A stretch of DNA of 64,000 bases. Origin: a virus. Its lineage: Duplodnaviria; Caudoviricetes. Shown piece after piece: positions 14,287 through 58,817 of this stretch (positions are counted from its first letter, which is position 1; every line of letters begins with the position of its first letter). Position numbers and translations under genes: made by a program. The DNA is taken from positions 117,490-181,489 of the IMG/VR virus record IMGVR_UViG_3300032233_002657; one strand, given 5' to 3'. Below the pieces are notes generated by a model. It searched no databases, was not told the origin of the DNA, and was given only the letters and a program-made list of their open reading frames with translations.

Positions 14287-14298
14287 TTATAGCTCCAT

Positions 14299-16677: not shown

Positions 16678-16716
16678 GTTCTTAACCTTCCAGGGCTTAG
16701 AAAATAACATAGAGCC

Positions 16717-16745
16717 ATTATGCTCTTTATTTGTTAATTCTGCAA
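16717..16745 (-). promoter_or_regulatory. sigma70-like promoter
   Basis: Minus strand TTGCAG-17 nt-CATAAT in an AT-rich intergenic gap. Confidence 0.5.
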
Positions 16746-16762
16746 CGCTTACGATAAATTTA

Positions 16763-17134
16763 TTATCTAGGGCGCATGTTTAGTATGTTCCTAGAAATAC
16801 TTCCACTTTTTAACAAGTCTATAACAATAGCCAGCTTTTCGTTCGTAGCCATCTTAGCATGTTCTTTACCGGATGTGGGAGTGGAGACGTCTCCACTAGC
16901 CGCCGATACAGCCGCAGCCTGATTGCTTACTGGGGGGAGCGCATTAGATGGAGAAAAAGCTGCCGGCATAGTATTCATAGATTTTATAGGTGAATTTGTA
17001 GAGCCTACGCTTTTAAGGTCGGATATTGGTGCGGAGGCCTGAGGGCCGGTTAGCTTGGGAAGAGTTAAATCCTTGGAAGCACTTACAGAGTTGTTTCCAG
17101 ACCAGTTAGCCCATTTATATATGAACGCGCTCAT
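16763..17134 (-). CDS. Hypothetical Ser/Pro-rich protein
   Basis: 123 aa directly after the RNAP beta'-C gene; carries a perfect palindrome copy. Confidence 0.5.
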   Translation of the reverse strand: MSAFIYKWANWSGNNSVSASKDLTLPKLTGPQASAPISDLKSVGSTNSPIKSMNTMPAAFSPSNALPPVSNQAAAVSAASGDVSTPTSGKEHAKMATNEKLAIVIDLLKSGSISRNILNMRPR

Positions 17135-19057
17135 TTAAAGTACACCGCCATTTGATTCGTCCGGAGAAAGAATATTATTTTTAGCCTGGTTTGTATCATA
17201 ACCTTTTACTGGACCTTTTCTACCGAATTCAACCGACTTAGCCAAAGAAGGTACATACGAAGTTCCTTGCTCGTCGCTTATGGCTCCCCTATGCACGGCT
17301 TGAAGGGTAGACTTCCTCAAATTACTTCCTAGCATTCGAGTCATCCAGTCAGGGTCATGCTGCAGGTTTTCTAGACCTCTGACAAAGTGTGCGTCAAACG
17401 GAGCTGGGTTTTTATGGGTAGTAATCTGGTTAATACCAAACTCTTCAAAATCTTTTACCATCGAAGGCTTTATTTTAGTACCTATAGTGTAATGCAAGGA
17501 GGGCTTCTCTAAGTATTGACCAACAGCTGATTTAGGGGTCATGACCTTATGTCCTTCTCGAGGTTCCCAAGAGTTCTCTATAGCGTCGTAAGGAATGACG
17601 TCGTCTGGGGCGTATTGGTTATACTCCTCATTCATCTTTATGTGGTTTATAAGACCCTTAGACATTATCTCTATATTTCGCCTATTGCCTGACATGCCTG
17701 AGTCTTTCATAGCTGTTTTAAAGGCTGTAACGAATTGTCGCCTTCCTTCGCCTATACCTTTAAACTTTGTAAGCTGTGCTGGGTTTGCTATTCCGTCAGA
17801 CAGCATGTCTCCTGCCTCTACGTTGTCATGCAGTTTCACAGTTAGGCCTACCTGAGGATTAACGTAATGGTCTATGCCGTCAATTCCTATAAACATGCCG
17901 CCGGTTGGAGCAGGCTTGATACTGGTAACCTTTCCATCTCTTTGAGCATGAGTAGCCCAATATGGAGATTGCTTAGGGGATTGCACTAACTGGTTTAGGT
18001 GCTTAAAGCCAGACACAGCCCCTGCGGCTCCGGCTACTCCGCCTGTGTGCTTGGAACTAAGCTGACCTTGGGATATAGGTTCAGATAAAGCCTGCATGGC
18101 GGCTATGCCTACTGAATCACCTGAAGGAGCTAGGCCGCCTCTTTCTCTTACGCCTAGGTCTTTAGAGTAGACCCCACCATCCGCAGCCCCAAAAGCTACA
18201 GGGCTTCTTACTACTATTCTCTTTAGTCCTTTAGCCTTGAGATCTTTAAGAACTCTAGGAGACAGCAAAGTATTCCTGCTGTAGCCCCCAGCGGACATAG
18301 CAAGAAGGGCTCCCTCGTTATCATCGTCATTAAGGTCTACAGGCATACCCCTATTTTCGCCACGAGTAGGGTCAGGATCATCATCCCCTACTACTATCAT
18401 TCTGTGCCCTACCTGATTCAACTGCTTAGAAAAGAACCCGGCGTCCATGGTAGAAAACTTAGTATCTGAAACGCCTTTTCTAGCACCGAATGTGCCTGCA
18501 AAGTATTCAGCTGGGTTTAGCCCTTTAGAGTATGAATTGAATACAGGTATAGGAATCGGGTTATCGTGATGATCAGTGTATAGAAGATCTCCGCCTCTTA
18601 AGCTTTTTAAATTCATAGCCTTACCCCTAGACCCAGACTGTATCTGACGGGCTAGCTGGTTGTTCTCTCTTATGGAGTCGTCAAATATGCCTTTCTCCAT
18701 TGGCTTCTGTGCGGCATTTAGAAGATCTATCATCTTAGTATTTTTAGCGCCTTCGTCGTCTCTGTTATCAGCCATTATTTTAGCAATGGCTATTCTTAGC
18801 TCTGCTTTGCTGTCTATGGAGAACTTTGATTCTCTTAGATCTTTTAGACCAAATGAAAACCCACCGCTTGAGTAGGAAACGTCTCTGCCTACGTCGTACA
18901 GCTTCTTAGATATGTCTCTATATTTTTCTGGATGTTTTTCAGCTATGAGCTGCATTAGCGCAGTTGAAGCCTTAGAATCAAGCGATCTTGAATAGTCCTT
19001 CAGCTCTTCTGGAAGGGCATCATTAACCATGATCTGGCCCACAGTGGTCCTAAGCAT
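17135..19057 (-). CDS. Phage multisubunit RNA polymerase, beta' C-terminal half
   Basis: TTVGQ start, SGSRG, bridge helix GLNPAEYF..TFGARKGVSDTKFSTMDAGFFSKQL, trigger loop GDSVGIAAMQALSEPISQGQLSSKHTGG; all correspond to RpoC motifs. Confidence 0.9.
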   Translation of the reverse strand: MLRTTVGQIMVNDALPEELKDYSRSLDSKASTALMQLIAEKHPEKYRDISKKLYDVGRDVSYSSGGFSFGLKDLRESKFSIDSKAELRIAIAKIMADNRDDEGAKNTKMIDLLNAAQKPMEKGIFDDSIRENNQLARQIQSGSRGKAMNLKSLRGGDLLYTDHHDNPIPIPVFNSYSKGLNPAEYFAGTFGARKGVSDTKFSTMDAGFFSKQLNQVGHRMIVVGDDDPDPTRGENRGMPVDLNDDDNEGALLAMSAGGYSRNTLLSPRVLKDLKAKGLKRIVVRSPVAFGAADGGVYSKDLGVRERGGLAPSGDSVGIAAMQALSEPISQGQLSSKHTGGVAGAAGAVSGFKHLNQLVQSPKQSPYWATHAQRDGKVTSIKPAPTGGMFIGIDGIDHYVNPQVGLTVKLHDNVEAGDMLSDGIANPAQLTKFKGIGEGRRQFVTAFKTAMKDSGMSGNRRNIEIMSKGLINHIKMNEEYNQYAPDDVIPYDAIENSWEPREGHKVMTPKSAVGQYLEKPSLHYTIGTKIKPSMVKDFEEFGINQITTHKNPAPFDAHFVRGLENLQHDPDWMTRMLGSNLRKSTLQAVHRGAISDEQGTSYVPSLAKSVEFGRKGPVKGYDTNQAKNNILSPDESNGGVL

Positions 19058-19059
19058 GA

Positions 19060-19278
19060 TTACCCTCCAAGTGTTATTTTCTTTATTCCCGGTGGTGTTA
19101 TTCCGTTTTGCTCTAAAGTATCTGCAAAACTGGAGTCGGCGGCCGTAACGCAGGTTATTACAGAATCTGAATTATCTAGGAACAAGGCTATAGGGTTATT
19201 TAAGTTGTCGTAAATAACTAGCCTTGTTGCCTTTGCCGGTGGAGTCTTATCAAAAAAATTATGATAATCAAGAATCAT
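19060..19278 (-). CDS. Small hypothetical protein
   Basis: 72 aa, coupled to neighbours; its end supplies the GGAGG RBS of the RNAP gene. Confidence 0.55.
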   Translation of the reverse strand: MILDYHNFFDKTPPAKATRLVIYDNLNNPIALFLDNSDSVITCVTAADSSFADTLEQNGITPPGIKKITLGG

Positions 19279-19882
19279 GTCTATTGGTCTTTCTCAAAAG
19301 GTCCATTATACCAGCTGCTTTTTCAGCAATCTCATGTTTAGAAAAACCTGCTGTCTTTGGGGCTGGTGCTGGTGCTCCAGCGGAAGGATCTCCGCCTTGA
19401 GGCTGAGGTTTACCTTGTGAAGAGTCATCTTTATTCTGGCTTGGGGCTTCGTCAAGAATGTCATGAGGAAGGTTTATGCCTAGGGAAGAATATAGATGGG
19501 TTAACAACTTTTGAATACGGCGCATAAACATTTCAGTGTTCTGCCCGTTATCTGATTTCTTTCCAGCTCCTTTGTTTCCCTTTACTTCAGCTAGAGCTGT
19601 CTGCAGTTCAGACTTAACTACAGCTCTAATTTGTTCAGTAGGGTCTTCTGGAGGAGGCGCGCCCCCCATCATAGAGGGATCCATAGGTGGTGCTCCCCCC
19701 ATCATAGAAGGGTCCATAGGAGGCTGACCGCCCATCATTGATGGGTCCATAGGTGGTGCGCCTGGAGGAGCACCTCCAGCCATAGCCGGGTCCATAGGAG
19801 GTTGGCCGCCGCCCTCAGGGGGCATGAAGGCCGACTTGATGCTCAATTGAGCCTGCTTTAATAGATACTTATTAATTGCCAT
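19268..19882 (-). CDS. Pro/Met/Gly-repeat protein
   Basis: Leader ...LKQA..IKSA, then four PPMDP[AS]M[AM]GG repeats. Confidence 0.6.
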   Translation of the reverse strand: MAINKYLLKQAQLSIKSAFMPPEGGGQPPMDPAMAGGAPPGAPPMDPSMMGGQPPMDPSMMGGAPPMDPSMMGGAPPPEDPTEQIRAVVKSELQTALAEVKGNKGAGKKSDNGQNTEMFMRRIQKLLTHLYSSLGINLPHDILDEAPSQNKDDSSQGKPQPQGGDPSAGAPAPAPKTAGFSKHEIAEKAAGIMDLLRKTNRHDS

Positions 19883-19934
19883 GATAACTCCTAGACACTA
19901 TGGGTTGCTTACATTAAGGCCGCAGTAGAGTACG

Positions 19935-20564
19935 TTACTCGTAGGGCGCTACTTTATTTGGAGTTTTAGGTTTTGCTTTTTTCCCGCTGATACCTTGTAT
20001 TCTGTTCTTCTCTGCATCAGGGTCTGTAAGATCTGAACCTGCAAATGAAGGTTTAGTAGGTTTATCGCCTTTTCTAGAAATTTGATTGGTAGTTGGCTTA
20101 GGTACTAAATCATTAACTATACTTCCGTCTTCGTCTTTTGTAGTTCCAGCTCCTAAACCTATTTCACCGCCACTATTAACTTTGTCCTGCATGGCATTCA
20201 TAAAGCTTCCAGCGTATGGGCTTACAGGAGCTTTAGGACCGAGAAGACGTTTTAAATACTCATTTCCAGTTCCTGCTAGATCCACTCCAAAGTGTTGAGC
20301 ACCGGCGCCACCTAAGCCGCCTACAGCGCCACCACCTACAGCACCAGATAAGAGACGAGATATAACACCTTGCTCGCTGTCGCCAAATAAAGCATTGCCA
20401 AGCCCGCCTACTAAGGCACCGCCGCCAGCCCCAAGGAGCCCGGCCTGAAGCCTAGGGTCCAAGCCGTTGTAAGCGTCCATGTACCCGCTTGCCTTATACA
20501 TGCTTCCAGTTTTGTTACCCAAGTACTGAGCTAACTCTATAGCTTTATTGTTTTGGTACTGCAT
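19935..20564 (-). CDS. Glycine-zipper protein with leader-like N-terminus
   Basis: NKAIELAQYLGNKTG resembles the family-A leader; GAGGGALVGGLG...GAVGGGAVGGLGG hairpin. Confidence 0.55.
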   Translation of the reverse strand: MQYQNNKAIELAQYLGNKTGSMYKASGYMDAYNGLDPRLQAGLLGAGGGALVGGLGNALFGDSEQGVISRLLSGAVGGGAVGGLGGAGAQHFGVDLAGTGNEYLKRLLGPKAPVSPYAGSFMNAMQDKVNSGGEIGLGAGTTKDEDGSIVNDLVPKPTTNQISRKGDKPTKPSFAGSDLTDPDAEKNRIQGISGKKAKPKTPNKVAPYE

Positions 20565-20656
20565 CTTGCTCTCCCATGTAAAATAAAATACTTATATAAG
20601 ACTATAACTTACTACTTACGCCCTTAGCTACCTCATTATTTAAAAACAGTGTGTAA

Positions 20657-23600
20657 TCAAGGCTTAGCGGGAGCCGAAGCCGCTTGGTTTGCCGGGGTAG
20701 GTTTGTAAAAACTATCTACGCCTCTAAGGCCTCCATAAGCCCCCAGGCCCATGCCCGTTACCGAACCTAAATCCCTGATAAGCTGATACCAGTCTTTATT
20801 TTTTTTAAGGCTATCCTTGGAAACAGTAGACTTTAATATCTTATCCGTGAGCCAATCGCCTCCTAGCATACCGGCAAACCCGCCGCCTACTAAGCCAGCC
20901 CCGTGCTGCATAGATTTAATTCCAGTATACTTCAAGGCATCTTTGAGGTCCTCGTTTCCTTCTTCTGTAGCAAAAGGAACTCTAAATTGCTGTAGGATCT
21001 TATGAGCTAATGATTTAGTCTCGTCATTTACGGTTGTGGTTCTAAGTATCGGCCGGCCTTTTTCATCAAGCTTAGTTTCAGTAATAAGCGGCTGAGCATT
21101 TCTTAGAGCTTCGGTTTCTTTTGGGCCCATAGCAGTAGATTCTGGATGCGACTGGCTAAGTTCATCAAGAGTAGGTTTACGTGTTACCTGCGCCCCAGAC
21201 ACCGAAATCTTTTTGTCGGTGTTTAAGAATGGGGCTTTAAAAGCTTCAGTAAACGACGCGACAGGGTTAGCGTTAACGGCTAGTTGGGCTTGAGTGTGAG
21301 GCATATACGCCCACCTTATTCCTGAAGAAACGCCATCTTGAGCCAGCGACGTAATCCCTGGCATGTTTACAGCTCCGGTTCCTAGGATAGCAGCGTCTGT
21401 AAGAGGGCTTGGGCCATACATGTGTTTTTGCACAGCTACAGGCTGTGCTTTTCTTAAAGCATCATACTTTTTGTACTTTGTAGCAATTGAAGGAAGCCCG
21501 GTCGTGTATGACAGTAGGGTATTCCCCGCAGTTTGTGAAAGCACTCTATCCCAGTCAGTCTGCTGTTTGCCTGTATTATAACCTCTAGATGGAGAGACAG
21601 GGTCAAAGCCTTCTTCGCCGGCTACGGGAAACGCTTGTTGCTTAGGGACTACTCCTCCAAGATACTGGGCCCCCGTTAATCCTGTACCAAAAGCAATGTG
21701 CTTTGCAAGTGACTTGCCCCCATTGTACCAGGTAGAACCTAGTAAAAGTGACTTAGCCGCATCTACAAATCCTGCTGCTTTAACCGCGGTAGAAGGCCTG
21801 AGTGCATGGACCGCTGCTGCGACACCGGCGGCGCCTCCGCCTATTTCTCCTACTAGCTTTAACCACCACCTTCTATCTTCTTGCCTTCTTCTATCATCAT
21901 ACTCATCTCCCTCTTCGTCGGGAAAAATGTAATTTGCTATTCCGCCCATAGCCCTATTGCCTAAATAAGAACCGGCTAGTCCCCCGGTTACATGCGGTAT
22001 TAAAGCTTTTCCTAAATCCTTTAAGCTAGGGTCTGCAACTTCGTCTCCGCCTAGTGACTTTATAACATGGTTTGCAGCAGGCACTATGTATTCTTTATGT
22101 GCTTTGGCGGCATATTGAGCAGCGTTTGCATTCGCAGTGTCTATCATTTTTACAAGAGATTTATTGCCGTAGAAATCCCCTAAAGATTTAAAAGGAGTTT
22201 GAATCCACTTGTCTACTTGTTCTTTTTGTCTGGGGTCTCTAGCTCTAGCCGCAAATTCTGAAACGTCTCCTTGAGTCTTGCTTACGTACTCACCGTAGGC
22301 CGGACCAATCCCCGAACCAAATATTCCATTCTTGTATTCCGGAGCCATTATGCCATGTCTAATTATTCCAAAACCCCCTAAGCCTGACCCAAGTGATCTT
22401 ACTGGAGCATTCCAGACCGCGGTACCGGCTCTAGGAGTGGCCATAACCGCTCCCCATAGCGCAGAGTTAGCCTTAGATTTTTCAAGGGTATGCTGGGGTA
22501 CATTCGGGTACACTTTCTTTTGGTAAGCGTCTTCAAGATTATATCCAGCAGTTGCGCCAAGGGCCATCCGCCCAGCCGTAGTAACAGAAGGTAAATAGGG
22601 TTTTATAACATCTAAGAGACCTGATGATTTTTCAATCCCGTTATTACTTTTAATTTTATTGCTACCGACTTCTTTTAATATATTAAGGAACTGCTCATTC
22701 AGCTTTTGCTTACGATCAGCGGCGTTTATTAAATAGTCATCCGTCGCTGGTAATGGGTCAGCTTTTATACCTACGTTCCTTAAAAAGGATCTTAATCTAC
22801 CTGGAGCCGTTCGGGCTATGTATCTCTCTATTAAAACTTTACGATCTTCAGGGGCTAAGTGCTCATGGCTATCAAACCTAAGCGCCCTGCCTTCGCTTTG
22901 GCTGCTTCTTGCTGTGTTCCAGTGTGGGTCTAGAAGTTGAACTAACTTGGTGCCTTTAAAAGATAACCCTTCGGTACCGGACGGTCCGAGAAGAGCAACT
23001 TTAAGTTTATCTGTGTTGTAGTCGTCTACTAACTTCTTTCTTTCCTTGTCAGATAAGTTGCCTGTGAACGAAGCTGCGGGTATACCAGCTTTATTAAGCG
23101 CATCTTGATAGGGGGATAAACCAGCGTCTATAAAATTAGAGAACACTAAGGCCTTGCCTTGTGGGTCTTTTTCAAAGAGTGATTTTAGGTTGCCAAGAGC
23201 TGCGGTAAGTTTGGGAGACTGCTCAAACGCCTTTGAAACATCTTTATTGCCGCGCATGAACGGAAGAGTAGATAGACCGACCTGCCTTAGACCAGTCATA
23301 AAGCTGGTCATCTTTGTAATTTCATCTTGAGTCAGCGGATAGTTCATCTTTAGCTTCCACCTGAGCACTGTAGGAAGTTGCCCCATCATGTAGCTATTAA
23401 GGTCGGTCTGGTCCCTGCCCATCTCTACTACAACGTCTTTTCTATTTATCTCAGCCTTAGGAGCCAGCGGGGCAAAGTAATCAACCTTATCCTTTAATTT
23501 ACTTTTTAGCTCGTCCTGATTTATAATAGCTGGCTCTTCCGCTGAGGAATCAAATAAGGCTTTATACCAAGGCTTATCAGGAATTTCATCTACGTATCTT

Positions 23601-24145
23601 TTACTAAACTCTTCAGGAGTTACGCTATCTCCAGTAAGAATGTTATAAGGAACCGAGAAGTCGCTCGGGTCGTTTACTACTGGGGTTCCTGTAAGAAGTA
23701 CGACCTGCCTAGCTTTACGGGCAGCTTCCATAAGGTTCTTAGTCTGGGAAGATTTTGGGTTTCTAAACCTATGAGCTTCATCTACTAATATGGATTGCGG
23801 GTTTGCGATCTCAGTTCCGTTACCTACGGCAGTGTGACTCATAACGCTACTAGGAGTTGCCGTTGCAGGATCTATAAACCTTTCTTGTTCTTTTCTAAGG
23901 TTGTTACGCAGGGCTGCGGGCACTACGGCTGTGTAAGGTATCTTAGTGGCGTCAGCAGCGGCTAACCCGCTAAGGGTCTTGCCTGATCCTAGGCTGTGAT
24001 AAAGAAGCAGCCTCGCTTTGTTCTGTGTGTCTAACTGCTTTTGGACTTTGTCCACTACTGCCGTTTGATGCGGCTGAAGCGTTATACCGGGCTGTAATTC
24101 AGCCTGCTTCAATACTTCCAACTCGTTCGATAAAGGAGTGCTCAT
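20657..24145 (-). CDS. SNF2-like SF2 helicase/translocase fused to two Gly-rich membrane-like modules
   Basis: HSLGSGKT (motif I), LVDEAH (II), LLTGTP (III), GTEGLSF, DPHWN and QSEGRALR (VI) in about the first 500 aa; the remainder has Gly-rich hydrophobic helices. Confidence 0.85.
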   Translation of the reverse strand: MSTPLSNELEVLKQAELQPGITLQPHQTAVVDKVQKQLDTQNKARLLLYHSLGSGKTLSGLAAADATKIPYTAVVPAALRNNLRKEQERFIDPATATPSSVMSHTAVGNGTEIANPQSILVDEAHRFRNPKSSQTKNLMEAARKARQVVLLTGTPVVNDPSDFSVPYNILTGDSVTPEEFSKRYVDEIPDKPWYKALFDSSAEEPAIINQDELKSKLKDKVDYFAPLAPKAEINRKDVVVEMGRDQTDLNSYMMGQLPTVLRWKLKMNYPLTQDEITKMTSFMTGLRQVGLSTLPFMRGNKDVSKAFEQSPKLTAALGNLKSLFEKDPQGKALVFSNFIDAGLSPYQDALNKAGIPAASFTGNLSDKERKKLVDDYNTDKLKVALLGPSGTEGLSFKGTKLVQLLDPHWNTARSSQSEGRALRFDSHEHLAPEDRKVLIERYIARTAPGRLRSFLRNVGIKADPLPATDDYLINAADRKQKLNEQFLNILKEVGSNKIKSNNGIEKSSGLLDVIKPYLPSVTTAGRMALGATAGYNLEDAYQKKVYPNVPQHTLEKSKANSALWGAVMATPRAGTAVWNAPVRSLGSGLGGFGIIRHGIMAPEYKNGIFGSGIGPAYGEYVSKTQGDVSEFAARARDPRQKEQVDKWIQTPFKSLGDFYGNKSLVKMIDTANANAAQYAAKAHKEYIVPAANHVIKSLGGDEVADPSLKDLGKALIPHVTGGLAGSYLGNRAMGGIANYIFPDEEGDEYDDRRRQEDRRWWLKLVGEIGGGAAGVAAAVHALRPSTAVKAAGFVDAAKSLLLGSTWYNGGKSLAKHIAFGTGLTGAQYLGGVVPKQQAFPVAGEEGFDPVSPSRGYNTGKQQTDWDRVLSQTAGNTLLSYTTGLPSIATKYKKYDALRKAQPVAVQKHMYGPSPLTDAAILGTGAVNMPGITSLAQDGVSSGIRWAYMPHTQAQLAVNANPVASFTEAFKAPFLNTDKKISVSGAQVTRKPTLDELSQSHPESTAMGPKETEALRNAQPLITETKLDEKGRPILRTTTVNDETKSLAHKILQQFRVPFATEEGNEDLKDALKYTGIKSMQHGAGLVGGGFAGMLGGDWLTDKILKSTVSKDSLKKNKDWYQLIRDLGSVTGMGLGAYGGLRGVDSFYKPTPANQAASAPAKP

Positions 24146-24148
24146 GGG

Positions 24149-27100
24149 TTACCCTACTATTACGACTTTATCGTTTGCGGATATTTCGCCTGCCTTGTAG
24201 GCACGTACGGCGTCCATCTTTGTTTTGAAGTATTTTTCAGGTCGCTTAGACGCTTCAGAGGTAGCCGTGTACAGCCCACCCTGGTACTCGTTCATAGGAA
24301 GCTGATGAACTTTGAAGTTTTTTACGGCAAGAAGATTACGGCTGGGTAGCATCTTTTCTAAAGCATCTTTAACAGACTCATCAGTTGTGGGCACATGGTA
24401 GTTCATGGCGTCGCCATCAAAGTCTGCTCCGAACCCTTTAACTATAATAGGAGGAACTTGAAGAGTACTTCCTTTAACAAGCTGAGGCCTAAACGCCATA
24501 ACCCCGTAACGGTGAAGCACTGGAGCTCTTGTTATGATTACAGGTCGAGCATCCATTTCTGCAAGCATTGCATCCATGGCCATCTTGTCTTTACTTTCTA
24601 TAAGATCGGCTGCTTTAAACCGATCCACTCCTCGTCGAATAAGCCTTCTCATGATAAAGGGTTTATACACAGCCCAAGCTCTGTCTTCCGGAAGGCCAAC
24701 TTGATCCATGTCTAAGTCTGGGTTTGGAGTAATAGCCGCTCGGCCAACCATGTCCACGTTAGAGGCTAACAGCTTTCTTTGAAGCACTCCAAACTTAGGG
24801 TTATCTCCAAATACTTGTTTTAATATTCCTTTTACGTTCTTTTGTTCTAGCTTAGGGTTACTAGTATCGGCCATGCCGGTTACGCCCTTGAAAGAGTCGT
24901 ATACAGCCAGTCTATGATCTGACAAATCTGTAAAATGGTTGGATGCTTCCTTCATCTCAGAGTTAGAATCTATGAGCTCCTTATAAAGGTAGTTAGCATC
25001 TCCTACCATAGGAAGGCCGCTGCTCTGCATTATGCTGACTGGCCTAAACAAAGGAGGAAGCACTGGCACTTTATCAAGAACCCAATCAGAGGGGTGCATT
25101 CCCAGATCCTTAGACGTTTTAAGATACCCTAGCTTTCTAACAGCTGTGTCTCTGTAAGACTTTTTACCTGACGCTATCTGCGCTCTAGCTTTTAGTATCT
25201 CCTGATCGACGTTCATCTTTTTAAGGGCCCCAGATATAGCTCCTGGCCCTTTAATTCCATTTAGCTCTTCTCTGCCCGCTAGCACATCCCTAAACTTATT
25301 CTCTGTTAATCCTAATACTCTGCGTATGGGCTCTTCCATAACTGGATTAGGCATAGGTTCATGCAGCTTTATGTGGCTCCACATAGTGCCGCCGTGGCCA
25401 CCAGTTAAAGTAGGGTCAAACAGGCCCCCGCCTACAGGCTTCATGCTGCCAGACCAATCAACTGTATCTGATCTTGTAATCTCTCTAGTACCAGACAAAG
25501 AATCGACGTCTGCGCTGGTCATAGCCATAAGCTGCGTCTTAGAACCTTTACGCACAGGGTTGATTCCGGCTGCCTGAAGCTGGGACATGAATTTACGATA
25601 GGTCAAAGGAACTCTTGGTATGGGCAGAGGCTTACCAGTCATGAACGCAGCCCAGTAGTCTTCGTTTTTCTGACCTCGAATAGCTCCTGCATCTCTTAAT
25701 ACTTCGTGGGCTCCGTGAGAAAGAAGCGCGTTGACGTCCATAAGGGCCATACGCTTTGATCCTGTCTCTCCACCTTTAGCAGGAGTTTCTTCAGCTGTGT
25801 ACCCGCTGGATACTCCTCTACCTTGGCCTTTTGATTCAGAGGTGTGATGCAGCTTCATAAAAAATCTGTTACCAGTGAATATACCTTTTATCTTTCTCCC
25901 AGTGTCGGGGTCTTCTATATCTTCCATATCGCTTAGATTATGCTTCTTTAGTTCGTTGATCGCATACTCTGTAAGATCCTCTATGTTATCAAAGTCTTTT
26001 ACGGCATACCTTTTACCCGTCTTCTCGGATATCTTGCCTAAAGCAGCTTCCACCATTTGGCCAGGGTTTGTACGAGTGATGATACCTAAGGGATTGAGCA
26101 GAACCTCAAAAGGTCTGCCGTCCGCTCCTTTAGGCATTTTGTCGTCTGGGACTACGGTGGATATTACACCTTTGTCGCCGTATCGTCCTGACAGCTTATC
26201 CCCTTCCTTCATAGGGACAAGACTTTTTACACTTACTGCATAACCTTTCTTAGTAGCAGTAACATCGGTGACTATTCCCTCATTCTCGTGATCCCAAGTT
26301 ACGCTGGCATCGTTAAAGCCAGTCCTAGATCTACCCACTTGTTGATTGTGCGCTCTAGATAATATGTTGGCTTGGAATATTAAAGGGTCGCCGGTTCGTA
26401 CGACGGTGCCTGGCTTAACTACTCCATTGTCATCCATGTTGCCTACATGTTCTTTGGTGTAGTTAGAAGGGAACAACGTAAGAAAAGCTCTTTTGCCTTG
26501 CTTAGTGTCTGGGCCAAACTCAGTTTCATGCTGGTACATATGCTCTGAAGTAAGCCTTTTTGCTGCCCCTTCTGATATGACTATGGCATCTTCAAAGTTG
26601 AAGCCTTTATAAGGTATGTAGGCAGTTCGTAAGTTAGTACCTAAAGCAGTAGTACCTTTATCATCGGTGTAGTTTGACTTAGCCAGAAGGTCGCCTTTGC
26701 CGACTACGTCCCCAACAGACACTGAAGGCGTGTTGTGAAGAAACGTCTTTCTGTTAAACGGAAGATTGTTATAAAGCTCGGTCTTATGAAGCTGGCCATC
26801 TTCTCCGCGTATGTGAATCTCGTCCCCGTCAACCTTTATGACTTGGCCCGCGTTCTGAGATCTAACTGCGCCCATATGAGAGCCATACTCTTCTTCGTAT
26901 GACTTATCTTCTTCATCGGGCATACCAGATTGGACGTAAGGCGACTGAGGGTTCTGCAAGGGCAGGGCCTGAGTAAGCATTCTCGCGCCCATCATTACGC
27001 GCTGGCCTTTAGTGGCGCTTTTTAAAGGTATAAGATTAGCCAATTGATTAAACGAGCTTTCCATTCTGGGTAGCTCATAGGCTACTTCGTCCCTGTTGAC

Positions 27101-28603
27101 GTATTTTATTTTACCGCCTGAAAGAGCCGCTATTTTAATGTTATTAGGGTCTCTTAGCTGATTAGGGAATGCTACTATCTCCTTGGTCATTTCTTCTGGA
27201 GTTCTCCACACATCCTTATTAGTGGAGACGTCTCTAAAGCTGCCGTACACCTTACCATCTAAACCTTTACGGGAGTTGATGGCGATGCGGCTGTCCACGC
27301 CTACCTTTAATGACTCTGGAGTAAGCAGAGGGTCAATAAACCCAAAGTGAGAAGGCTGCACGTTTCTAGCTTCTTCAGGAACTGACTGCAGGGATGGTAT
27401 ACCGCCTTCACCTAGTCTGGTTACTCTTGTAATTTGATTTAGTAAATCAGCTGGATTTACTTCCTCAAGAGGCTGCCCCATTCCGCTGGTAGAGATAGCT
27501 CCGTTTACATGGGAGTCTAGAAACCCAGGGGAGAACGAGCTTAAATTTTGCTTGAAGCTAGCCTTCCAAAGCAGAGGTCGCATAACTCTGTGAGAGGACC
27601 TAACTCTTTCAGAGAATAAATCTTCAGGCCCTATCATCGATTGATAGGCCATGGCATCTCTGTCGTCTGGGTCTGACTCTCTTCTGTGAACAGCTAATAT
27701 CTTTTTAGTTGCAGCTAGAATTGAGTCGGCTGAGACATTCTTATACGGCTGCCCAAGAGTTTTAAAATTAACGTCGGGGTCCATCTCCATTTTGGCTATG
27801 GCGTCTAATACAGACTGCTTTCTGCTTTCTGGAGTAACTATGTCGCCTGGTTTAGACTTACCGATCTTACTAAATATCTTTTCCATGTGCTGCGGGTCAT
27901 CAGTGGAGGCATTAGAGTTATATATGTCATTACCCCAAGCTTCCCGTAGCTGCTTATCAGACGCCCCTAAAGCTTTTAGAAGAGGAGTTATGGGTACAGA
28001 CGACTGTCCAAACTTTATAGAGAATACGCCCTTTTCCGGATCCAGCGCATATTTATGGGATGCTCCTTTTCCCGGCATAATGTTAGCGTGGCTTTCAACT
28101 TCGCCGCTGTGCGTTATTCTTGTAAAGACTCCAGGCTTAAGCCTCATTTGATTGGCTAGAGTGTATTCTGTGCCGTTAAGAATGAAAGTACCTCTATCAG
28201 TGAGATAGGGTATTTTAGCCAAGGTTGTTCGTTTGCTTTCTATGATATCGCCGGTAACACTGTCTGTGAGGTTAAGCGTGCCTTTAAGGCTTCTGTTTAG
28301 CGTCTGGCCTTTAAGTATAGCTTCCTTCTGCGCTTTTATAGATTTGGTTTCTTCGTTGTCGCCCCACCCTACATCTGTAACACTAAGCGTGTGCCTTTGA
28401 TTTACAATAGGTTCAAATTTAGAGGCAGTGGCTAGAACCCCGCCAAATATAGCGGATCTAGTAGCTTTCATGTCGTCAAACTTACGCATGGTTGGGTCAG
28501 CCATGGGCGCAAGCGGCATGGGCGCAAGCTTTGGCGGCGAGCTCAGCGCAGGAGTTGAAAGAACTCCTAAAGAGCTATCGTTATCTGGTAGAACTCCAGC
28601 CAT
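24149..28603 (-). CDS. Phage multisubunit RNA polymerase: beta fused to beta' N-terminal half (catalytic)
   Basis: Beta motifs GTFILNG, GFNFEDAI, GDKLSGRYGDKGVIS, LLNPLG..RTNPGQ, MKLHH; then beta' motifs GLFD, VPVLPPLFRP, TRAPVLHR and catalytic GADFDGD (24410-24430). Confidence 0.92.
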   Translation of the reverse strand: MAGVLPDNDSSLGVLSTPALSSPPKLAPMPLAPMADPTMRKFDDMKATRSAIFGGVLATASKFEPIVNQRHTLSVTDVGWGDNEETKSIKAQKEAILKGQTLNRSLKGTLNLTDSVTGDIIESKRTTLAKIPYLTDRGTFILNGTEYTLANQMRLKPGVFTRITHSGEVESHANIMPGKGASHKYALDPEKGVFSIKFGQSSVPITPLLKALGASDKQLREAWGNDIYNSNASTDDPQHMEKIFSKIGKSKPGDIVTPESRKQSVLDAIAKMEMDPDVNFKTLGQPYKNVSADSILAATKKILAVHRRESDPDDRDAMAYQSMIGPEDLFSERVRSSHRVMRPLLWKASFKQNLSSFSPGFLDSHVNGAISTSGMGQPLEEVNPADLLNQITRVTRLGEGGIPSLQSVPEEARNVQPSHFGFIDPLLTPESLKVGVDSRIAINSRKGLDGKVYGSFRDVSTNKDVWRTPEEMTKEIVAFPNQLRDPNNIKIAALSGGKIKYVNRDEVAYELPRMESSFNQLANLIPLKSATKGQRVMMGARMLTQALPLQNPQSPYVQSGMPDEEDKSYEEEYGSHMGAVRSQNAGQVIKVDGDEIHIRGEDGQLHKTELYNNLPFNRKTFLHNTPSVSVGDVVGKGDLLAKSNYTDDKGTTALGTNLRTAYIPYKGFNFEDAIVISEGAAKRLTSEHMYQHETEFGPDTKQGKRAFLTLFPSNYTKEHVGNMDDNGVVKPGTVVRTGDPLIFQANILSRAHNQQVGRSRTGFNDASVTWDHENEGIVTDVTATKKGYAVSVKSLVPMKEGDKLSGRYGDKGVISTVVPDDKMPKGADGRPFEVLLNPLGIITRTNPGQMVEAALGKISEKTGKRYAVKDFDNIEDLTEYAINELKKHNLSDMEDIEDPDTGRKIKGIFTGNRFFMKLHHTSESKGQGRGVSSGYTAEETPAKGGETGSKRMALMDVNALLSHGAHEVLRDAGAIRGQKNEDYWAAFMTGKPLPIPRVPLTYRKFMSQLQAAGINPVRKGSKTQLMAMTSADVDSLSGTREITRSDTVDWSGSMKPVGGGLFDPTLTGGHGGTMWSHIKLHEPMPNPVMEEPIRRVLGLTENKFRDVLAGREELNGIKGPGAISGALKKMNVDQEILKARAQIASGKKSYRDTAVRKLGYLKTSKDLGMHPSDWVLDKVPVLPPLFRPVSIMQSSGLPMVGDANYLYKELIDSNSEMKEASNHFTDLSDHRLAVYDSFKGVTGMADTSNPKLEQKNVKGILKQVFGDNPKFGVLQRKLLASNVDMVGRAAITPNPDLDMDQVGLPEDRAWAVYKPFIMRRLIRRGVDRFKAADLIESKDKMAMDAMLAEMDARPVIITRAPVLHRYGVMAFRPQLVKGSTLQVPPIIVKGFGADFDGDAMNYHVPTTDESVKDALEKMLPSRNLLAVKNFKVHQLPMNEYQGGLYTATSEASKRPEKYFKTKMDAVRAYKAGEISANDKVVIVG

Positions 28604-28604
28604 T

Positions 28605-29642
28605 TTAGTCCTTATTAATTAGCCGCTTTAAAGCGTTTCTAGCGGGCTTTATAGAATTTTTAGCTTTGTTAATTCTTACAGGAACTGGAACAGAGTAGAT
28701 GGGCATGCCTTCAGCATTGCGCCTTGAAAGAAACTCATTAAGGTATCGCTCAGAAGCTAAACGCTCTGGATCGTTTTTCTTTGCTTCTCTATACCCTTTT
28801 ACGGTTCCTGCAGTGCCTAACCCTAAAGTTAAGGCGCCTAAAAGTCCGGCGTACCCTTTAAATGCTTTGTCAGCATTGTTAAGCCCGTAGGCCAGGCCTC
28901 CTAGCGCGTTTGAACCAGCACCTACAACTCCTTTGCCTAAGGATAAAGCGCCTGACATTAAGTCAGCCCCTAGGTCAGCAGATTTTTCAAGGTTGTTTTG
29001 CCCTACGCAAGCCTCAGCTAGCTTCTCTAGGTCTGCAGCTAAAGAAGACATCTCAGAACTTGCTGCCTTTTCTGCTACGGCCCTTTCAGCCGTAACAGGT
29101 CGGTTTAATCGGTTGGAGTGTGACTCTATGAGAGCTTCCCCAAACTCTTTCTTGGCTTCTTCTAGCTCTGTTAAATGATCTTCTTTTATTTTGTTCTTTA
29201 AAACGTAGTTCAGCAGCATGTTGCTGCCTATAGCAGGACCGGCGGCCGAAGCTACAATAGCTGGTAAATAGTAAGGGTTAGTTAAAGATTTTAAACTAAA
29301 CGCAGTCTTTACATCGCTATGAGATGATTTCTTTTCTGTGTCCTTATCTGGAGCTTCGGCCAAGTCTTGACTAGGCTTAAATGTTTGTAGCTTTTTAGCT
29401 TTTCCTTTAAACCTTTTCTTTCTTGTTTTTTCGAAGAAGTCACTTGTAGAAGGCAGAGCCTCTTGGCCGGGAACCGGTACTTCTATTACAGGGGAGCCTA
29501 TGCTCATAACTTTATCTCTAAATAGGGCGCCAGGTCTAAGGTATTTGCTCAGCGCTACAGCAGATCCTCCAAGAAGGCTAGCTAGGCCCAACCGCTTCAT
29601 GTCGAAGATTTCTTCGGGACTGAACAATGATTTCTTAAGCAT
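28605..29642 (-). CDS. Hypothetical membrane-like virion protein
   Basis: 345 aa; hydrophobic Gly-rich segments following VKTA and EKSA motifs. Confidence 0.55.
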   Translation of the reverse strand: MLKKSLFSPEEIFDMKRLGLASLLGGSAVALSKYLRPGALFRDKVMSIGSPVIEVPVPGQEALPSTSDFFEKTRKKRFKGKAKKLQTFKPSQDLAEAPDKDTEKKSSHSDVKTAFSLKSLTNPYYLPAIVASAAGPAIGSNMLLNYVLKNKIKEDHLTELEEAKKEFGEALIESHSNRLNRPVTAERAVAEKAASSEMSSLAADLEKLAEACVGQNNLEKSADLGADLMSGALSLGKGVVGAGSNALGGLAYGLNNADKAFKGYAGLLGALTLGLGTAGTVKGYREAKKNDPERLASERYLNEFLSRRNAEGMPIYSVPVPVRINKAKNSIKPARNALKRLINKD

Positions 29643-29996
29643 CTAACTTCTCCTGTTTGGCGCCAGCTTTCCTTGAACGTCAGCCCACTCCATGTGAATG
29701 CTAAGCTTTTTATCTTCAGAGATAATCTTAGTCCTGTCGATTATAACACAGGCCCTGTTGGCGGCTAAGTCTCTAATCTTCGTGTATTCCTTAAGGTCTT
29801 CAGGATTACTAAGGTCAAATATCTTTACTTTAACGTCATACTGAAGAGGTATATTTTCATACTCCTCTTGAGTAGTGTTTGGGGCCATTGGGCCTCCTAA
29901 AATAGGAAAACCCTGAGACGTCGTCCCAGTGGTCTGCCTATATTTAACTCCTACACCACCTAATCCAAACTGACTTAAAATAGCGCTGTCTCTCAT
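29643..29996 (-). CDS. Hypothetical protein
   Basis: 117 aa ORF in operon. Confidence 0.55.
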   Translation of the reverse strand: MRDSAILSQFGLGGVGVKYRQTTGTTSQGFPILGGPMAPNTTQEEYENIPLQYDVKVKIFDLSNPEDLKEYTKIRDLAANRACVIIDRTKIISEDKKLSIHMEWADVQGKLAPNRRS

Positions 29997-30006
29997 GGTC
30001 GTCTTT

Positions 30007-30969
30007 CTAATATCGGGTTATTCCGGACATACCTCTATCACGAGCTCTTCGACGTCTTGTGAGTTCGGCTTGCCGTTTAATAGTTTCGGCTTGCCTATCG
30101 TATTCATTTATAATTTCTTCTTTCAAAAGATCATCTTTATCTGGCAGTGGAGCTTTAAAAGCTTCGTGAATGCCAGGGCCTACTATGTTCTTACCGGCGT
30201 AATAACCGCCGCCAGCTGTTAGTGCTGCGGTTCCTAAAGCAAGAGCCGGTACTGTGCGTATTAGTTCGCCTAAGGCTGCCAAGTTTGCCTTCTTCTCTAC
30301 AGCATGCAAAGCCTGCTTTACTCTTAACTTTATCTCATCGATAGTAAGTCCGTCTTCTATGCACTTAGCTAGAAAGGCTACTTTGAACATTTGTTTGTCA
30401 GTCATAGCTGATCCTTGCTTATCGGCCATAGGGGCTGACGTGGGTGTAGCTGAAGGGGCTGGGGTAACAGAGGGAGCGATAGGGGCAGGGGCTGAGCCTA
30501 CTGCGCCCATAGGGGCCGGGGTTGGAGACGGGCTAGGAGCTGGAGATGGCACTGCTGGCGGTACGTACCCAGGAGACCCTTCGACTAAATCATTTTTGTG
30601 AGGCAACCATTTTTGATTTTTTCTGTCCCAGCCTATGTTGGTATCTAGCGCTTTAGTCTTCTGTGGATTACCGGCAAACCTTTTATAATCAGAGGCGTAG
30701 GTTTGGAATTTCATGTTATCAGAATTTTTGTTAGCTGCCCCTAGCTGCAACCCAAGAAGGGTAGCATGATAACTGTTAGGGTTGTCCCACTCTGCCTGGG
30801 GTATTCCAAACTGATCTGTTATCTTTTTTTGCAGGCTAGGGTGGAGATCCGAGAAGTTCGCCCGCCCTAGCTCTACTCCTCCGTTATTGGCGGCGTACCT
30901 GGCGGCTGAGGCATGGACCTGATCGGGTGTTGATGGTCTTCTTTGTGGGACGGTTACTGGGTTAGGCAT
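30007..30969 (-). CDS. Hypothetical protein with Pro-rich linker and TM-like segment
   Basis: 320 aa; PAPSP linker, FKVAFLAKC...VEKKA module, then a hydrophobic helix. Confidence 0.55.
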   Translation of the reverse strand: MPNPVTVPQRRPSTPDQVHASAARYAANNGGVELGRANFSDLHPSLQKKITDQFGIPQAEWDNPNSYHATLLGLQLGAANKNSDNMKFQTYASDYKRFAGNPQKTKALDTNIGWDRKNQKWLPHKNDLVEGSPGYVPPAVPSPAPSPSPTPAPMGAVGSAPAPIAPSVTPAPSATPTSAPMADKQGSAMTDKQMFKVAFLAKCIEDGLTIDEIKLRVKQALHAVEKKANLAALGELIRTVPALALGTAALTAGGGYYAGKNIVGPGIHEAFKAPLPDKDDLLKEEIINEYDRQAETIKRQAELTRRRRARDRGMSGITRY

Positions 30970-30973
30970 GATG

Positions 30974-31342
30974 TTATCCTAGTATAATTCCTGAGTTAGT
31001 TACGCCCTTCTCTACGCTAGCCCCGGTTGACCAAATCTTTCGGTTGTCGTGCGCTAATTGCTTAGCTACTCTAGGATCCGTAGGATCCCCTTGCTCTTTG
31101 GCTTCCTGTACACACAGCATAATATCCCTAGCTGCTGAAATCAACTTTTGCTTGTCGTCATAGTGTTGAGCCCTTGAGGCTTCTTCAAATAAAGCCTTAG
31201 CTCTCTTGCGCATGACCGCCGTCGGTTCTACTTTAGTTGACCCGTCTCGCCCGTCGTAAATGTTAACTAGACCGTGCTCGGCCCAAAACTCTATTTGGTT
31301 ATACTTGTAAGCTTTTTTAGTATTTATAACCGGAATATCCAT
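30974..31342 (-). CDS. Hypothetical protein
   Basis: 122 aa, GAGG RBS, own promoter candidate. Confidence 0.6.
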   Translation of the reverse strand: MDIPVINTKKAYKYNQIEFWAEHGLVNIYDGRDGSTKVEPTAVMRKRAKALFEEASRAQHYDDKQKLISAARDIMLCVQEAKEQGDPTDPRVAKQLAHDNRKIWSTGASVEKGVTNSGIILG

Positions 31343-31369
31343 GTGGTCCTCTTTTCCTATTAATTAAGA

Positions 31370-31398
31370 ATAATACACTAATCTAACTAGCATGTCAC
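31370..31398 (-). promoter_or_regulatory. sigma70-like promoter upstream of the RNAP-containing operon
   Basis: Minus strand GTGACA-17 nt-TATTAT. Confidence 0.45.
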
Positions 31399-31405
31399 CT
31401 AGTAT

Positions 31406-32716
31406 TTAGTGCCCGAACAGGCCCGGCACTATGGTTTTTATAGCCCCAGCCATAATCCCAGCGTTCTGTAATGTACGCTGCGCCTGAGGGGTAAGCCCAG
31501 CCAAAGCTCCAAGGACTTTACCGCCAATGGTTGCCTGTGCATAGCCCGCTCCCATTCCTATTCCTATTTTAGCTATGTCCATGGGGGTTATGAATCCTGA
31601 GCTGCCGTTGAGAGTATTAGCTGCCCCTACGATACCCATTGTGGCGGCTTGCATGCTTGAAGAAGAGAACGGGTCGCCCATGACTACTCTGTTAAAGGCA
31701 TCCACAGGAATAGGGGCTAAGTAAAGAGAGTCACTGTTGCCAAAGAAGTCGGCTGCCTTCTTCATCTCGTCAGAAATCTGTGGCTGTATATCTGACAAAG
31801 AGTCAGAGGCTTGTTTTAAATTAGAGTTACCAAATAAGACGTTTGGTCTTATAAAAGAGTTAAATGAGGTTCTGTGCCTATCTGGGTTAGATGGGTCGTC
31901 CCAATTAGACATGCCTACGCCGCCTAGCGCAGCCCCAGGCAGAGCTCCTAACGCTCCTCCAAGTACAGCTAGCCTTTTTCGAAGCTTCCCCTTTTCAAAG
32001 ACCTCAGGGGCAAACGTTTCAGCCAAAGCACCTGCTCCGTACCCTAGACCCGCAGTTAAAGCTCCACCGGCTATCATAGATGCCAACGGAGTGGCTCCGC
32101 CTATGGCGTCGGTAAAACCAGATGGCTTTATCGCAAATGCCTGAGCCATCGGGCCAGCTACACTTGATATGGTTGTAGCAGACTTCACTAGTATCCAAGG
32201 GCGGTTTAAGTTAGGGCGCCCTATCTTATGATGAATTCCATTTTTCTCTAAAACTGTGGAGACGTCTCCACTCGGAATGGCTCCATAATCGTCCACTAAA
32301 ACCTTGTCGTTTAATGGGCTTACCCAAGCTCGCATATTTGGAAGAAGCGCCCTTGCAACCTTTTCAAAAATAGATTTTGCAGCTGATGTGTAAGTGTTGA
32401 CAAGCTCAGGCACATAGCTCCAGGATAAATCTGATGAAATTTTATTTAAGGCTTCTTGCCTCTTTATCGTATAAGGGATAATATCTCTTGGAGCGTGGAC
32501 TTTGAATGATGTAGGCACGTGCGTAACTCCCACAAATTTCTTGTTAAGATCGGAATCTATGAGGAAATCTTCAGGTCTGCTCATAAACAGATTCCTTAAT
32601 ATTTTGTTCTTCTCATGATAATTTTTACCGTCCGACATGGCTTTTGCTTGCAACAGCAAATGAAGGTCGGCTTTGGGGTTGCGTTCTACCTGTGGCTGCA
32701 TTACAAAATCCTCCAC
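31406..32716 (-). CDS. Glycine-zipper protein (multi-module)
   Basis: 436 aa (possible ATG start at 32701); Gly-zipper hairpins after VKSA and MKKAA; no Cys. Confidence 0.55.
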   Translation of the reverse strand: MEDFVMQPQVERNPKADLHLLLQAKAMSDGKNYHEKNKILRNLFMSRPEDFLIDSDLNKKFVGVTHVPTSFKVHAPRDIIPYTIKRQEALNKISSDLSWSYVPELVNTYTSAAKSIFEKVARALLPNMRAWVSPLNDKVLVDDYGAIPSGDVSTVLEKNGIHHKIGRPNLNRPWILVKSATTISSVAGPMAQAFAIKPSGFTDAIGGATPLASMIAGGALTAGLGYGAGALAETFAPEVFEKGKLRKRLAVLGGALGALPGAALGGVGMSNWDDPSNPDRHRTSFNSFIRPNVLFGNSNLKQASDSLSDIQPQISDEMKKAADFFGNSDSLYLAPIPVDAFNRVVMGDPFSSSSMQAATMGIVGAANTLNGSSGFITPMDIAKIGIGMGAGYAQATIGGKVLGALAGLTPQAQRTLQNAGIMAGAIKTIVPGLFGH

Positions 32717-32807
32717 CCCGATAGTAACAACTATTAGCTCTTCAAGCCATAGTTGATACTGTGTATGCAGGAATTACTTAACTTAGGTGAAATAGGAGAT
32801 TCAGTAA

Positions 32808-54209: not shown

Positions 54210-54392
54210 AGTTAGTACTCCTACGTGCTTAAAGGTCTTAGCTCTTCGAGGCATTATACTATTTAAGGCGGGTCTATGCATACTGATTTATGCATTTACG
54301 CTATGTTTCAGTATCGCCTGTAGAAGACTTATAGTATATATCAGACAAATATAACTGTTTATAATTATTTATCTAGAGTAAGAAGCTTACCG

Positions 54393-55214: not shown

Positions 55215-55216
55215 GT

Positions 55217-55681: not shown

Positions 55682-55707
55682 TGCTATTTCCTAGAGTTAA
55701 TTGCTGT

Positions 55708-56346: not shown

Positions 56347-56367
56347 TGCTATCCTCTATTGTTAAAA

Positions 56368-57162: not shown

Positions 57163-57172
57163 AGTCTAATCC

Positions 57173-57589: not shown

Positions 57590-57600
57590 ATGATTGGGTC

Positions 57601-58221: not shown

Positions 58222-58245
58222 GATTGTTACGTCCCATTATAAGGT

Positions 58246-58776: not shown

Positions 58777-58817
58777 GGTTGTTACTTCCTTGTAAAAAAT
58801 ACTGAGTTAAAACACTA

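Follow-up and report, generated by a model that had tools for sequence, protein, structure and literature searches.

The last 64 kb of the 181,489-bp IMG/VR virus record IMGVR_UViG_3300032233_002657 (Caudoviricetes; CheckV completeness 88%), here called the window, carry two genes whose products, judged by their sequences, together make up a multisubunit RNA polymerase (RNAP) of bacterial type, its catalytic core complete and all catalytic motifs intact. In the first gene product, P0001, the beta subunit is joined through a short linker to the N-terminal half of beta'. The second, P0002, is the C-terminal half of beta' and is encoded separately. Most of what is known of phage multisubunit RNAPs concerns phiKZ/AR9-type phages and the mReC lineage, which comes from metagenomes. 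The layout described here is real, widespread and apparently an undescribed variant of the phage multisubunit RNAP, and a functional two-chain phage RNAP is very probably a trait of the whole clade that carries it.

To identify the parts of P0001, we compared it with Pfam profiles and with Protein Data Bank (PDB) sequences. Pfam placed the beta domains Rpb2_3 and Rpb2_6 (PF00562, E value 7e-51) at residues 379-931 and the beta' N-half domains Rpb1_1 and Rpb1_2 (E 5.5e-21) at residues 1167-1416 of the same chain. In phmmer alignments with the PDB, residues 55-1025 matched bacterial beta over nearly its full length (lowest E 3e-75), and residues 1092-1481 matched beta' 166-561 of 8i23_D, or 175-551 of the 624-residue cyanobacterial gamma subunit. 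The best PDB matches were bacterial beta and bacterial beta' (beta' E 1e-44), and residues ~1-40 formed a variable N-terminal extension. The beta portion contained the conserved, Lys-bearing motifs of its catalytic barrel (Table 1), among them GDKLSGRYGDKGV and NPLG...NPGQ, and the catalytic, Mg-binding GADFDGD of beta' was found at residues 1392-1398. A preliminary description of the window had reported beta fused to the beta' N-half in one open reading frame (ORF), with both double-psi barrels in one chain; the Pfam and PDB alignments of the 1484-residue product bear this out, Rpb2_6 and GADFDGD both lying in P0001.

The junction was aligned with Salmonella, Streptomyces, a Clostridiaceae bacterium and a Paceibacterota metagenome-assembled genome (MAG). 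The linker, first estimated at ~25530-25565, was placed at the position given in Table 1. It stands in for the beta C-terminal tail, the stop and intergenic region and approximately 16 N-terminal residues of beta', which resumes at about its residue 17. A linker of 9-10 residues is kept across the clade. In comparison with four bacterial beta' sequences, the beta' Zn ribbon (CxC...CxxC) was deleted in P0001, with HGGTM in its place (GGHGGTMW in Table 1). P0001 and P0002 together contained 0 cysteines, so neither Zn-binding element of beta' (the N-terminal ribbon and the second Cys4 site) is present.

P0001 ended 86 residues past GADFDGD, that is, 91 past the first Asp of DFDGD (the earlier estimate was ~90). 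The remainder of beta' began at MLRTTVGQ in a separate gene beyond a helicase gene and three small genes, as the preliminary description had also stated; the space between the two RNAP genes is 5.09 kb and holds the SNF2 helicase and three small ORFs. P0002 matched beta' residues 577-1090 of 8i23_D. It thus holds the bridge helix (P0002 residues 183-213), the trigger loop (P0002 residues 319-343; ...SSKHTGG, with the conserved His) and the C-terminal clamp and jaw. Since the alignment of P0001 runs to residue 561 of 8i23_D beta' and that of P0002 starts at residue 577, the two chains form one contiguous beta' with no segment missing. In four cyanobacteria/melainabacteria, TTxGR was located ~20 residues before the gamma C-terminus, consistent with the earlier statement that the cyanobacterial split follows this motif closely. 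Because gamma holds TTxGR and P0002 starts before TTVGQ, the phage cut lies just upstream of the cyanobacterial cut.

Table 1. Positions of the RNAP genes, their motifs and the neighbouring genes in the window
Feature	Position (nucleotides)	Strand	Basis
Fused-chain gene, 1484 residues (P0001): beta, linker and beta' N-half	24149..28603	-	Pfam, PDB alignment, independent assembly
Beta portion, residues 1-1016, ending ...QLQAAGINP	25556..28603	-	Pfam, PDB alignment, junction alignment
Beta catalytic-barrel motif GDKLSGRYGDKGV	26165-26203		
Beta catalytic-barrel motif NPLGIITRTNPGQ	26057-26095		
Fusion linker VRKGSKTQL, residues 1017-1025	25529..25555	-	junction alignment
Beta' N-half, residues 1026-1484	24152..25528	-	PDB alignment, junction alignment
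GGHGGTMW	25379-25402		comparison with four bacterial beta'
Clamp helices of P0001	24932-25003		
Catalytic GADFDGD of P0001	24410-24430		
Beta' C-half gene, 640 residues (P0002), start MLRTTVGQ	17135..19057	-	Pfam Rpb1_5, PDB alignment
RTTVGQ of P0002	19034-19051		
Bridge helix of P0002	18419-18511		
Trigger loop of P0002	18029-18103		
Helicase: SNF2-family ATPase at residues ~15-430, then a cysteine-free C-terminal extension of ~700 residues rich in Gly/Ala	20657..24145	-	Pfam, homology
209-residue cysteine-free protein, glycine-zipper-like segments	19935..20564	-	sequence
204-residue cysteine-free protein, PPMDPSMMGG repeats	19268..19882	-	sequence
72-residue ORF, conserved in close relatives only	19060..19278	-	relatives comparison
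803-residue conserved protein, following beta'C in relatives; weak homologue of Arash virion protein gp218	14299..16710	-	homology
Upstream co-oriented block, five genes (345, 117, 320, 122, 436 residues), nearly cysteine-free	28605..32716	-	relatives comparison

Mis-assembly, a frameshifted rpoC, recent capture of a host rpoBC or bacterial contamination of a viral bin might each be suspected, since the fused gene is collinear with the bacterial rpoB-rpoC tandem and the record is a metagenomic contig. This explanation is effectively refuted. The same P0001 sequence was found on at least four contigs, one of which is an independent Logan assembly (run ERR2848502, 31 kb) with the same gene order, so that the assembly artefact raised in the preliminary description is contradicted both by this assembly and by the relatives, which show the same fusion and split. 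Cultured phage genomes share the layout, the split point is kept to the residue with all motifs intact, and the flanking genes are phage structural genes. A bacterial genome scan returned tandems at 25-29% identity, the identity to any bacterium, and the phage sequences form a long separate branch.

The layout is not peculiar to this genome; it marks a very large phage clade with contigs up to ~235 kb, which includes the cultured phages Arash, D69, D148 and D181 in GenBank. A word-indexed search with the fused chain (E <= 1e-3) returned 1,731 proteins, and domain content was read from the 120 listed. All 120 listed homologues carried PF00562, and 119 of them also PF00623, the exception being a 1350-residue protein. 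Most listed fused homologues were ~1440-1500 residues long; intein domains occurred in the longer proteins, and the largest contigs reached 235 kb. An exhaustive HMMER search with the second chain gave 1,015 representatives of 50%-identity clusters at E < 1e-30.

We further compared seven IMG/VR relatives (41-82% identity), Salmonella phage Arash and Vibrio phage D69. Beta and the beta' N-half were in one frame in all seven fetched relatives, Arash and D69, and the beta' C-half (beta'C) was a separate gene ~0.6-5 kb downstream wherever the relatives' flank was available. The fused chain ended 91-95 residues past the first Asp of D[FY]DGD in every relative compared. In most environmental relatives beta'C started 1-4 residues before TT[VI]GQ; the motif was degenerate in the relatives L010 and L012, in Arash and in D69.

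A beta' tree of 36 rows (quick IQ-TREE, LG+C20), with eight fused-split sequences and 25 bacteria from ~10 phyla, united the eight in one clade (Shimodaira-Hasegawa-like approximate likelihood ratio test, SH-aLRT, 99) on a long stem outside the bacteria. Arash and D69 formed the sister group to the environmental set, the clade did not group with cyanobacteria, and RHph_Y65 and RP13 behaved as attracting long branches. Because of long branches and skewed composition, the tree is read only as indicating that the layout originated once and that the clade falls inside none of the sampled bacterial phyla. Taken with the comparison of relatives, it shows a layout that arose once and is under selection. 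The separate acquisition put forward in the preliminary description is not established by this tree, which sets the clade outside the 25 sampled bacteria; the clade may share its acquisition with mReC or phiKZ-type enzymes.

Several side observations concern the members of the search set. The RNAP genes of relatives carried insertions of ~1-1.3 kb: one in L010 (9863-15661), several in L011 (9941-21552), and, in L012 (4571-24372), at least six in beta and two in beta'C. Most were in frame and intein-like, and one at beta residue ~805-810 broke the frame in L011 and L012. A 52-kb contig in the Planctomycetaceae MAG JBGSVD010000136.1 (L017) carried a member of the fused-RNAP clade with 46% identity over residues 163-794; this may point to the host or may be an error of binning. 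The record MT836236.1 ('Bacteriophage sp.', human faeces; L097) had a beta' inside Bacteria beside a Treponema MAG (SH-aLRT 96) and is probably a bacterial rpoBC fragment, not a phage. Other 'phage' records matching the query (Listeria, Staphylococcus and Enterococcus 'phages' and Acinetobacter phage MD-2021a) resembled host rpoBC.

Among the closest known systems is Arash (OQ632216), in which gp206 (1525 residues) and gp216 (606 residues) share both the beta-beta'N fusion and the position of the split. As in the window's genome, Arash has a sigma-like gene (gp10), a linked SNF2 helicase (gp217) and a ~181-kb genome, and its RNAP genes lie in the structural region beside a gp218-like protein. 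Identity was 31% for the fused chain and 24% for beta'C; Arash differs in its motif ADYDGD, its degenerate TTVG, the position of the helicase after beta'C, and the nine small genes that part the two halves. The Arash paper labels gp206 as beta and gp216 as beta', with the fusion and the split unmentioned (PMC10585845). Vibrio phages D69, D148 and D181 (OZ195729 and others) likewise have a fused chain of 1527 residues, a 609-residue beta'C ~0.6 kb downstream and a sigma-like gene, with ~29% identity to the sequences here; their annotation calls all these genes hypothetical. A homing-endonuclease insertion additionally interrupts the fused gene of D148 and D181.

Natural full beta-beta' fusions occur in Helicobacter and Wolbachia. 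In the Helicobacter-type fusion, as here, the beta C-terminus is joined to the beta' N-terminus and the rpoB stop and intergenic region are lost; however, the whole of beta' lies in the fused chain and alpha and omega are present, whereas here beta'C is separate. A complete fusion was also seen in a bacterium of the CPR, a Candidatus Paceibacterota MAG (DATJQA010000074.1; L019 163-7014), as one 2284-residue frame with the Zn ribbon kept and a Helicobacter/Wolbachia-type look. The cyanobacterial and plastid pair gamma/RpoC1 and beta'/RpoC2 resembles the phage proteins in that beta' is cut soon after the catalytic double-psi barrel, but the cyanobacterial cut falls ~20 residues after TTxGR and the phage cut 1-4 residues before it, and cyanobacterial beta is separate. 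The distinction from both systems that had been proposed is upheld: the fused chain stops 86 residues past its motif, and the cut precedes TTxG.

The phiKZ/AR9-type RNAPs share with the present enzyme that they are phage-encoded, two-barrel and without alpha and omega, with beta' split past the barrel and an SNF2/Rad25-like helicase linked; one of their forms is packaged in virions. They consist of 4-5 pieces that are much more divergent, beta itself being divided into 2-3 chains, and have two paralogous sets and no sigma homologue (PMC7598289, PMC7824862), whereas here beta is whole and fused, and there is one set and a sigma70-family gene. The enzyme is therefore bacterial-like and not phiKZ-like, as first suggested: its best PDB matches are bacterial beta and beta', its beta is unsplit and it forms one RNAP set. 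The mReC lineage resembles it as a deep-branching, cellular-like beta/beta' in uncultured Caudoviricetes (PMC7481178). Selection in that study called for separate beta and beta', each of at least 800 residues, and NADxDGD in beta', and all rows examined of its supplementary table have separate beta (~900-1560 residues) and unsplit beta' (~900-1390 residues) (PMC7481178). Identity with mReC was rejected, since here beta' is split, beta'C has 640 residues and the motif is GADFDGD, and those table rows hold separate genes only (PMC7481178). The mReC study thus screened the fused-split clade out by its selection and does not describe it. The possibility that the layout matches an already described phage RNAP clade was checked, with mReC and phiKZ-type enzymes ruled out, and no published description of fusion-plus-split was found in the literature searched.

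We then examined the other subunits of the enzyme. The preliminary description recognised no alpha, omega or sigma gene. For the 64-kb window this holds, since profile searches detected none of the three; for the genome it holds for alpha and omega and fails for sigma. PF01000 and PF01192 had no match in the genome, and the positive controls worked. Host alpha and omega subunits may be used by the phage enzyme. An alpha-like candidate, a 117-residue ORF at genome 11104-11337 (minus strand; L016 1396-1749), was rejected: it reached 16 bits against PF01193 (RNA_pol_L, alpha/Rpb11 dimerisation), for which the cut-off is 24, and this match, in a cysteine-containing early-gene region, is probably due to chance. 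There was no second two-barrel RNAP set, as judged by the lack of any further Rpb2_6 or Rpb1_2 match in the genome. No T7-like RNAP was found in the genome either, although the T7-like control search likewise matched nowhere.

A sigma70-family gene, P0124 (275 residues), was found at genome 101418-102245, ~15.2 kb before the start of the window. P0124 passed Pfam Sigma70_r3 (26.7 bits against 25.3) and matched phrog_351. Its family profile matched SigB, SigA, RpoD and RpoS in the PDB (E ~1e-11), and the SigB/RpoD alignment spanned regions 2.x-4. The sigma-like gene co-occurred with the fused-split RNAP in all seven genomes considered (five further relatives, Arash and this genome). Co-folding of P0124 with P0001 residues 1040-1484 gave 0.70, while the best control gave 0.00; among reference pairs, 58 of 80 solved complexes attained that mark, as did 2 of 110 mismatched pairs. 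Agreement between runs covered at least 55% of contacts, the partner had a predicted local distance difference test score (pLDDT) of at least 67, and the predicted interface lay between clamp helices 1196-1237 and sigma residues 50-89 and 120-130. Because sigma on the clamp helices of beta' is a textbook pairing, the co-fold pass may only mirror likeness to solved holoenzymes. Whether the sigma-like protein is the promoter-specificity subunit of the phage RNAP is, in our estimate, evenly balanced.

The phage RNAP could alternatively depend on a phage-specific promoter factor of unrecognised type, as with phiKZ gp68 and AR9 gp226, or on none, the sigma-like protein being unrelated to its function. 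Deletion of the beta' Zn ribbon, a sigma/DNA contact element in bacteria, would suit such an enzyme, and the conserved unassigned proteins that flank the RNAP genes (803, 204, 117 and 122 residues) offer candidates. We regard this as improbable, because the sigma-like gene accompanies the RNAP in seven of seven genomes, and its product is also cysteine-free, was detected in Arash virions and co-folds onto the clamp helices with controls at 0.00.

The virion proteome of Arash suggests where the enzyme might act. As unique peptides/spectra, gp206 had 128/3516, the highest of all proteins, gp216 40/1210, the helicase gp217 38/1148, gp218 36/1149 and the sigma-like gp10 24/467, the portal protein having 32/877 (PMC10585845). 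Both RNAP chains, the sigma-like protein and the helicase thus rank with the most abundant proteins of the Arash virion. By crude arithmetic, the RNAP-linked proteins had 1.9-2.4 spectra per residue and the portal 1.5. The N-terminal portion of this window's SNF2 ATPase is homologous to the virion-detected gp217. One long operon, read in a single direction, holds the RNAP genes together with the gene of the major capsid protein (window 5706-6635; a homologue of Arash gp226) and further homologues of Arash structural genes. Gene ends in this operon showed translational coupling, TAA then ATG; the beta'C stop TAA (window 17135-17137) directly precedes the ATG (17134) of an in-frame 123-residue ORF. 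In the relative L010 (19493-19496), beta'C and the next ORF of 815 residues share a frame with one stop between them.

Cysteine was strongly depleted in the same proteins. The RNAP and helicase contained 0 cysteines in 3286 residues, against a genome mean of 1.36%, and the eight proteins of window 17135-32716 had two cysteines in ~4,800 residues. Of 99 fused homologues, 94 had no cysteine at all, and the same was true of 68 among 69 homologues of the sigma-like protein. Arash gp206 had 1, gp217 0 and gp10 0, while Arash TerL had 13 and its ribonucleotide reductase (RNR) 11; Salmonella RpoB had 7 and RpoC 15. Cysteine scarcity may be a signature of head-packaged, ejected proteins, and the purge shared by RNAP, helicase and sigma would fit a common route through the tail and periplasm. 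Further long proteins with zero or one cysteine were encoded at genome 98813-100447, 101418-102245 and 105175-109902 and at window 55708-58221 and 60363-62930. A shared capsid-targeting leader was also considered and rejected, since the N-termini of RNAP, helicase and sigma were without the MNRFEKAAAFGA- or MRNFNKLANLH-type leaders of window 53673-59414.

Packaging into the virion of this phage is slightly favoured over its alternatives. A non-virion RNAP would be made after infection and read only middle and late genes, like the non-virion RNAP of phiKZ/AR9, leaving the early genes to a host RNAP that the sigma-like protein redirects. Phage sigma factors classically act on the host core, and the Arash virion preparation also held plainly non-structural enzymes. 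Moreover, a single RNAP set was found here, and phages that inject a multisubunit RNAP usually own a second, non-virion set (PMC7598289). We nevertheless consider a non-virion enzyme unlikely, if still a serious competitor. In Arash, gp206 spectra exceeded those of the major capsid protein, and the RNAP-linked proteins had similar per-residue counts, above that of the portal. The RNAP genes lie inside a head/internal-protein operon, and the cysteine purge is common to RNAP, helicase and sigma, not to TerL or RNR. Sigma70-type promoter-like sites were depleted across the RNAP block (10 in window 14000-33500, against 24.3 +/- 4.4 in shuffled sequences).

On this evidence, a virion-packaged, two-chain RNAP of bacterial type lacking alpha and omega is the probable overall reading. 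The fusion would have come from loss of the stop and intergenic region in an ancestral rpoB-rpoC tandem, and the resulting beta-beta' tether would aid assembly without alpha2 and omega. Late expression of the structural operon would yield the enzyme, which would enter the head with the SNF2 ATPase and P0124, then be ejected with the DNA to read early genes independently of the host RNAP. That cysteine is almost wholly missing, the beta' Zn ribbon with it, would reflect adaptation to the ejection route. Extended further, this would be a fourth kind of injected transcription machine: a stoichiometric, head-packaged holoenzyme in which a bacterial-type RNAP of two chains, free of alpha, omega, zinc and cysteine, is joined by a sigma70-family factor of its own and by an SNF2 translocase. 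It would be ejected through the tail with the DNA and make the phage independent of host RNAP from the first minute. We put this extended form forward only tentatively.

Several points weigh against these interpretations. The virion data come from one relative, with ~31% (fused chain) and ~24% (beta'C) identity, and its preparation also held ribonucleotide reductases and RNA ligases; the Arash authors offer carry-over of abundant proteins beside packaging (PMC10585845). The RNAP chains are without the N-terminal leader common to seven putative head-internal proteins of this genome, and cysteine avoidance has other possible causes. Alpha and omega were judged absent from profile searches, and the record searched is 88% complete. 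With respect to sigma, the Pfam models of regions 2 and 4 gave no match to P0124, and the predicted complex cannot separate binding to the phage core from binding to the host core and may only echo solved structures.

The link between helicase and RNAP takes three forms: here and in close relatives the helicase gene separates the two RNAP halves, in Arash it comes after beta'C, and in P0250 helicase and beta'C are one protein. Its C-terminal ~660 residues (~500-1162, window 20657-22650) had no tblastn match even in the relative L006, whose RNAP is 83% identical; this region is either hypervariable or masked as low complexity. The 204-residue protein sits between the two RNAP genes in four relatives (L006, L008, L010 and L011). 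Several of the five proteins of the upstream block have glycine-zipper segments, and four of them are kept upstream of the RNAP gene in relatives. The ORFs at 16763, 19060, 19268, 19935, 29643 and 30974 had no Pfam or PHROGs match, and an Atlas feature search gave no usable match for the 117- and 803-residue proteins. The AlphaFold model of the 803-residue protein had a mean pLDDT of 60.6 and a predicted template modelling score (pTM) of 0.34, and Foldseek against the PDB found no match at E <= 0.001. The small neighbours had been proposed as possible accessory subunits, a role that their glycine-zipper or low-complexity sequences and the lack of Pfam or PHROGs matches do not support. From sequence features, the small proteins flanking the RNAP look like internal or ejection proteins, not RNAP subunits.

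Many of the beta'C cluster representatives (P0125-P0274; beta'C at residues 1-620) carried a variable C-terminal extension of 400-1100 residues belonging to no known family. P0250 combined beta'C with NUDIX and an SNF2 helicase, the latter 47.5% identical to the window helicase, and the extensions of P0161 and P0163 carried DUF5661. That these extensions correspond to the 123- or 803-residue protein of the window was rejected, as they were not homologous.

The fused-split enzyme represents a third layout of phage multisubunit RNAP, far closer to the bacterial enzyme than those known, and roughly a thousand 50%-identity clusters of it occur in public metagenomes. Since a Salmonella phage that can be cultivated has the layout, direct tests are feasible. 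Should the enzyme work in the proposed way, it would provide a natural minimal bacterial RNAP, of two chains and without alpha, omega or zinc, for assembly studies, as well as a clean marker for the phylogeny of a large group of phages excluded by the filters of published RNAP surveys, and possibly an account of cysteine purging as a signature of ejected proteins. If the proposal is true, covalent beta-beta' tethering can replace the alpha2 platform, and a sigma-dependent enzyme would travel in the virion, the first virion RNAP with a sigma70-type factor. Very abundant large environmental phages (~180-235 kb) would then be independent of host RNAP.

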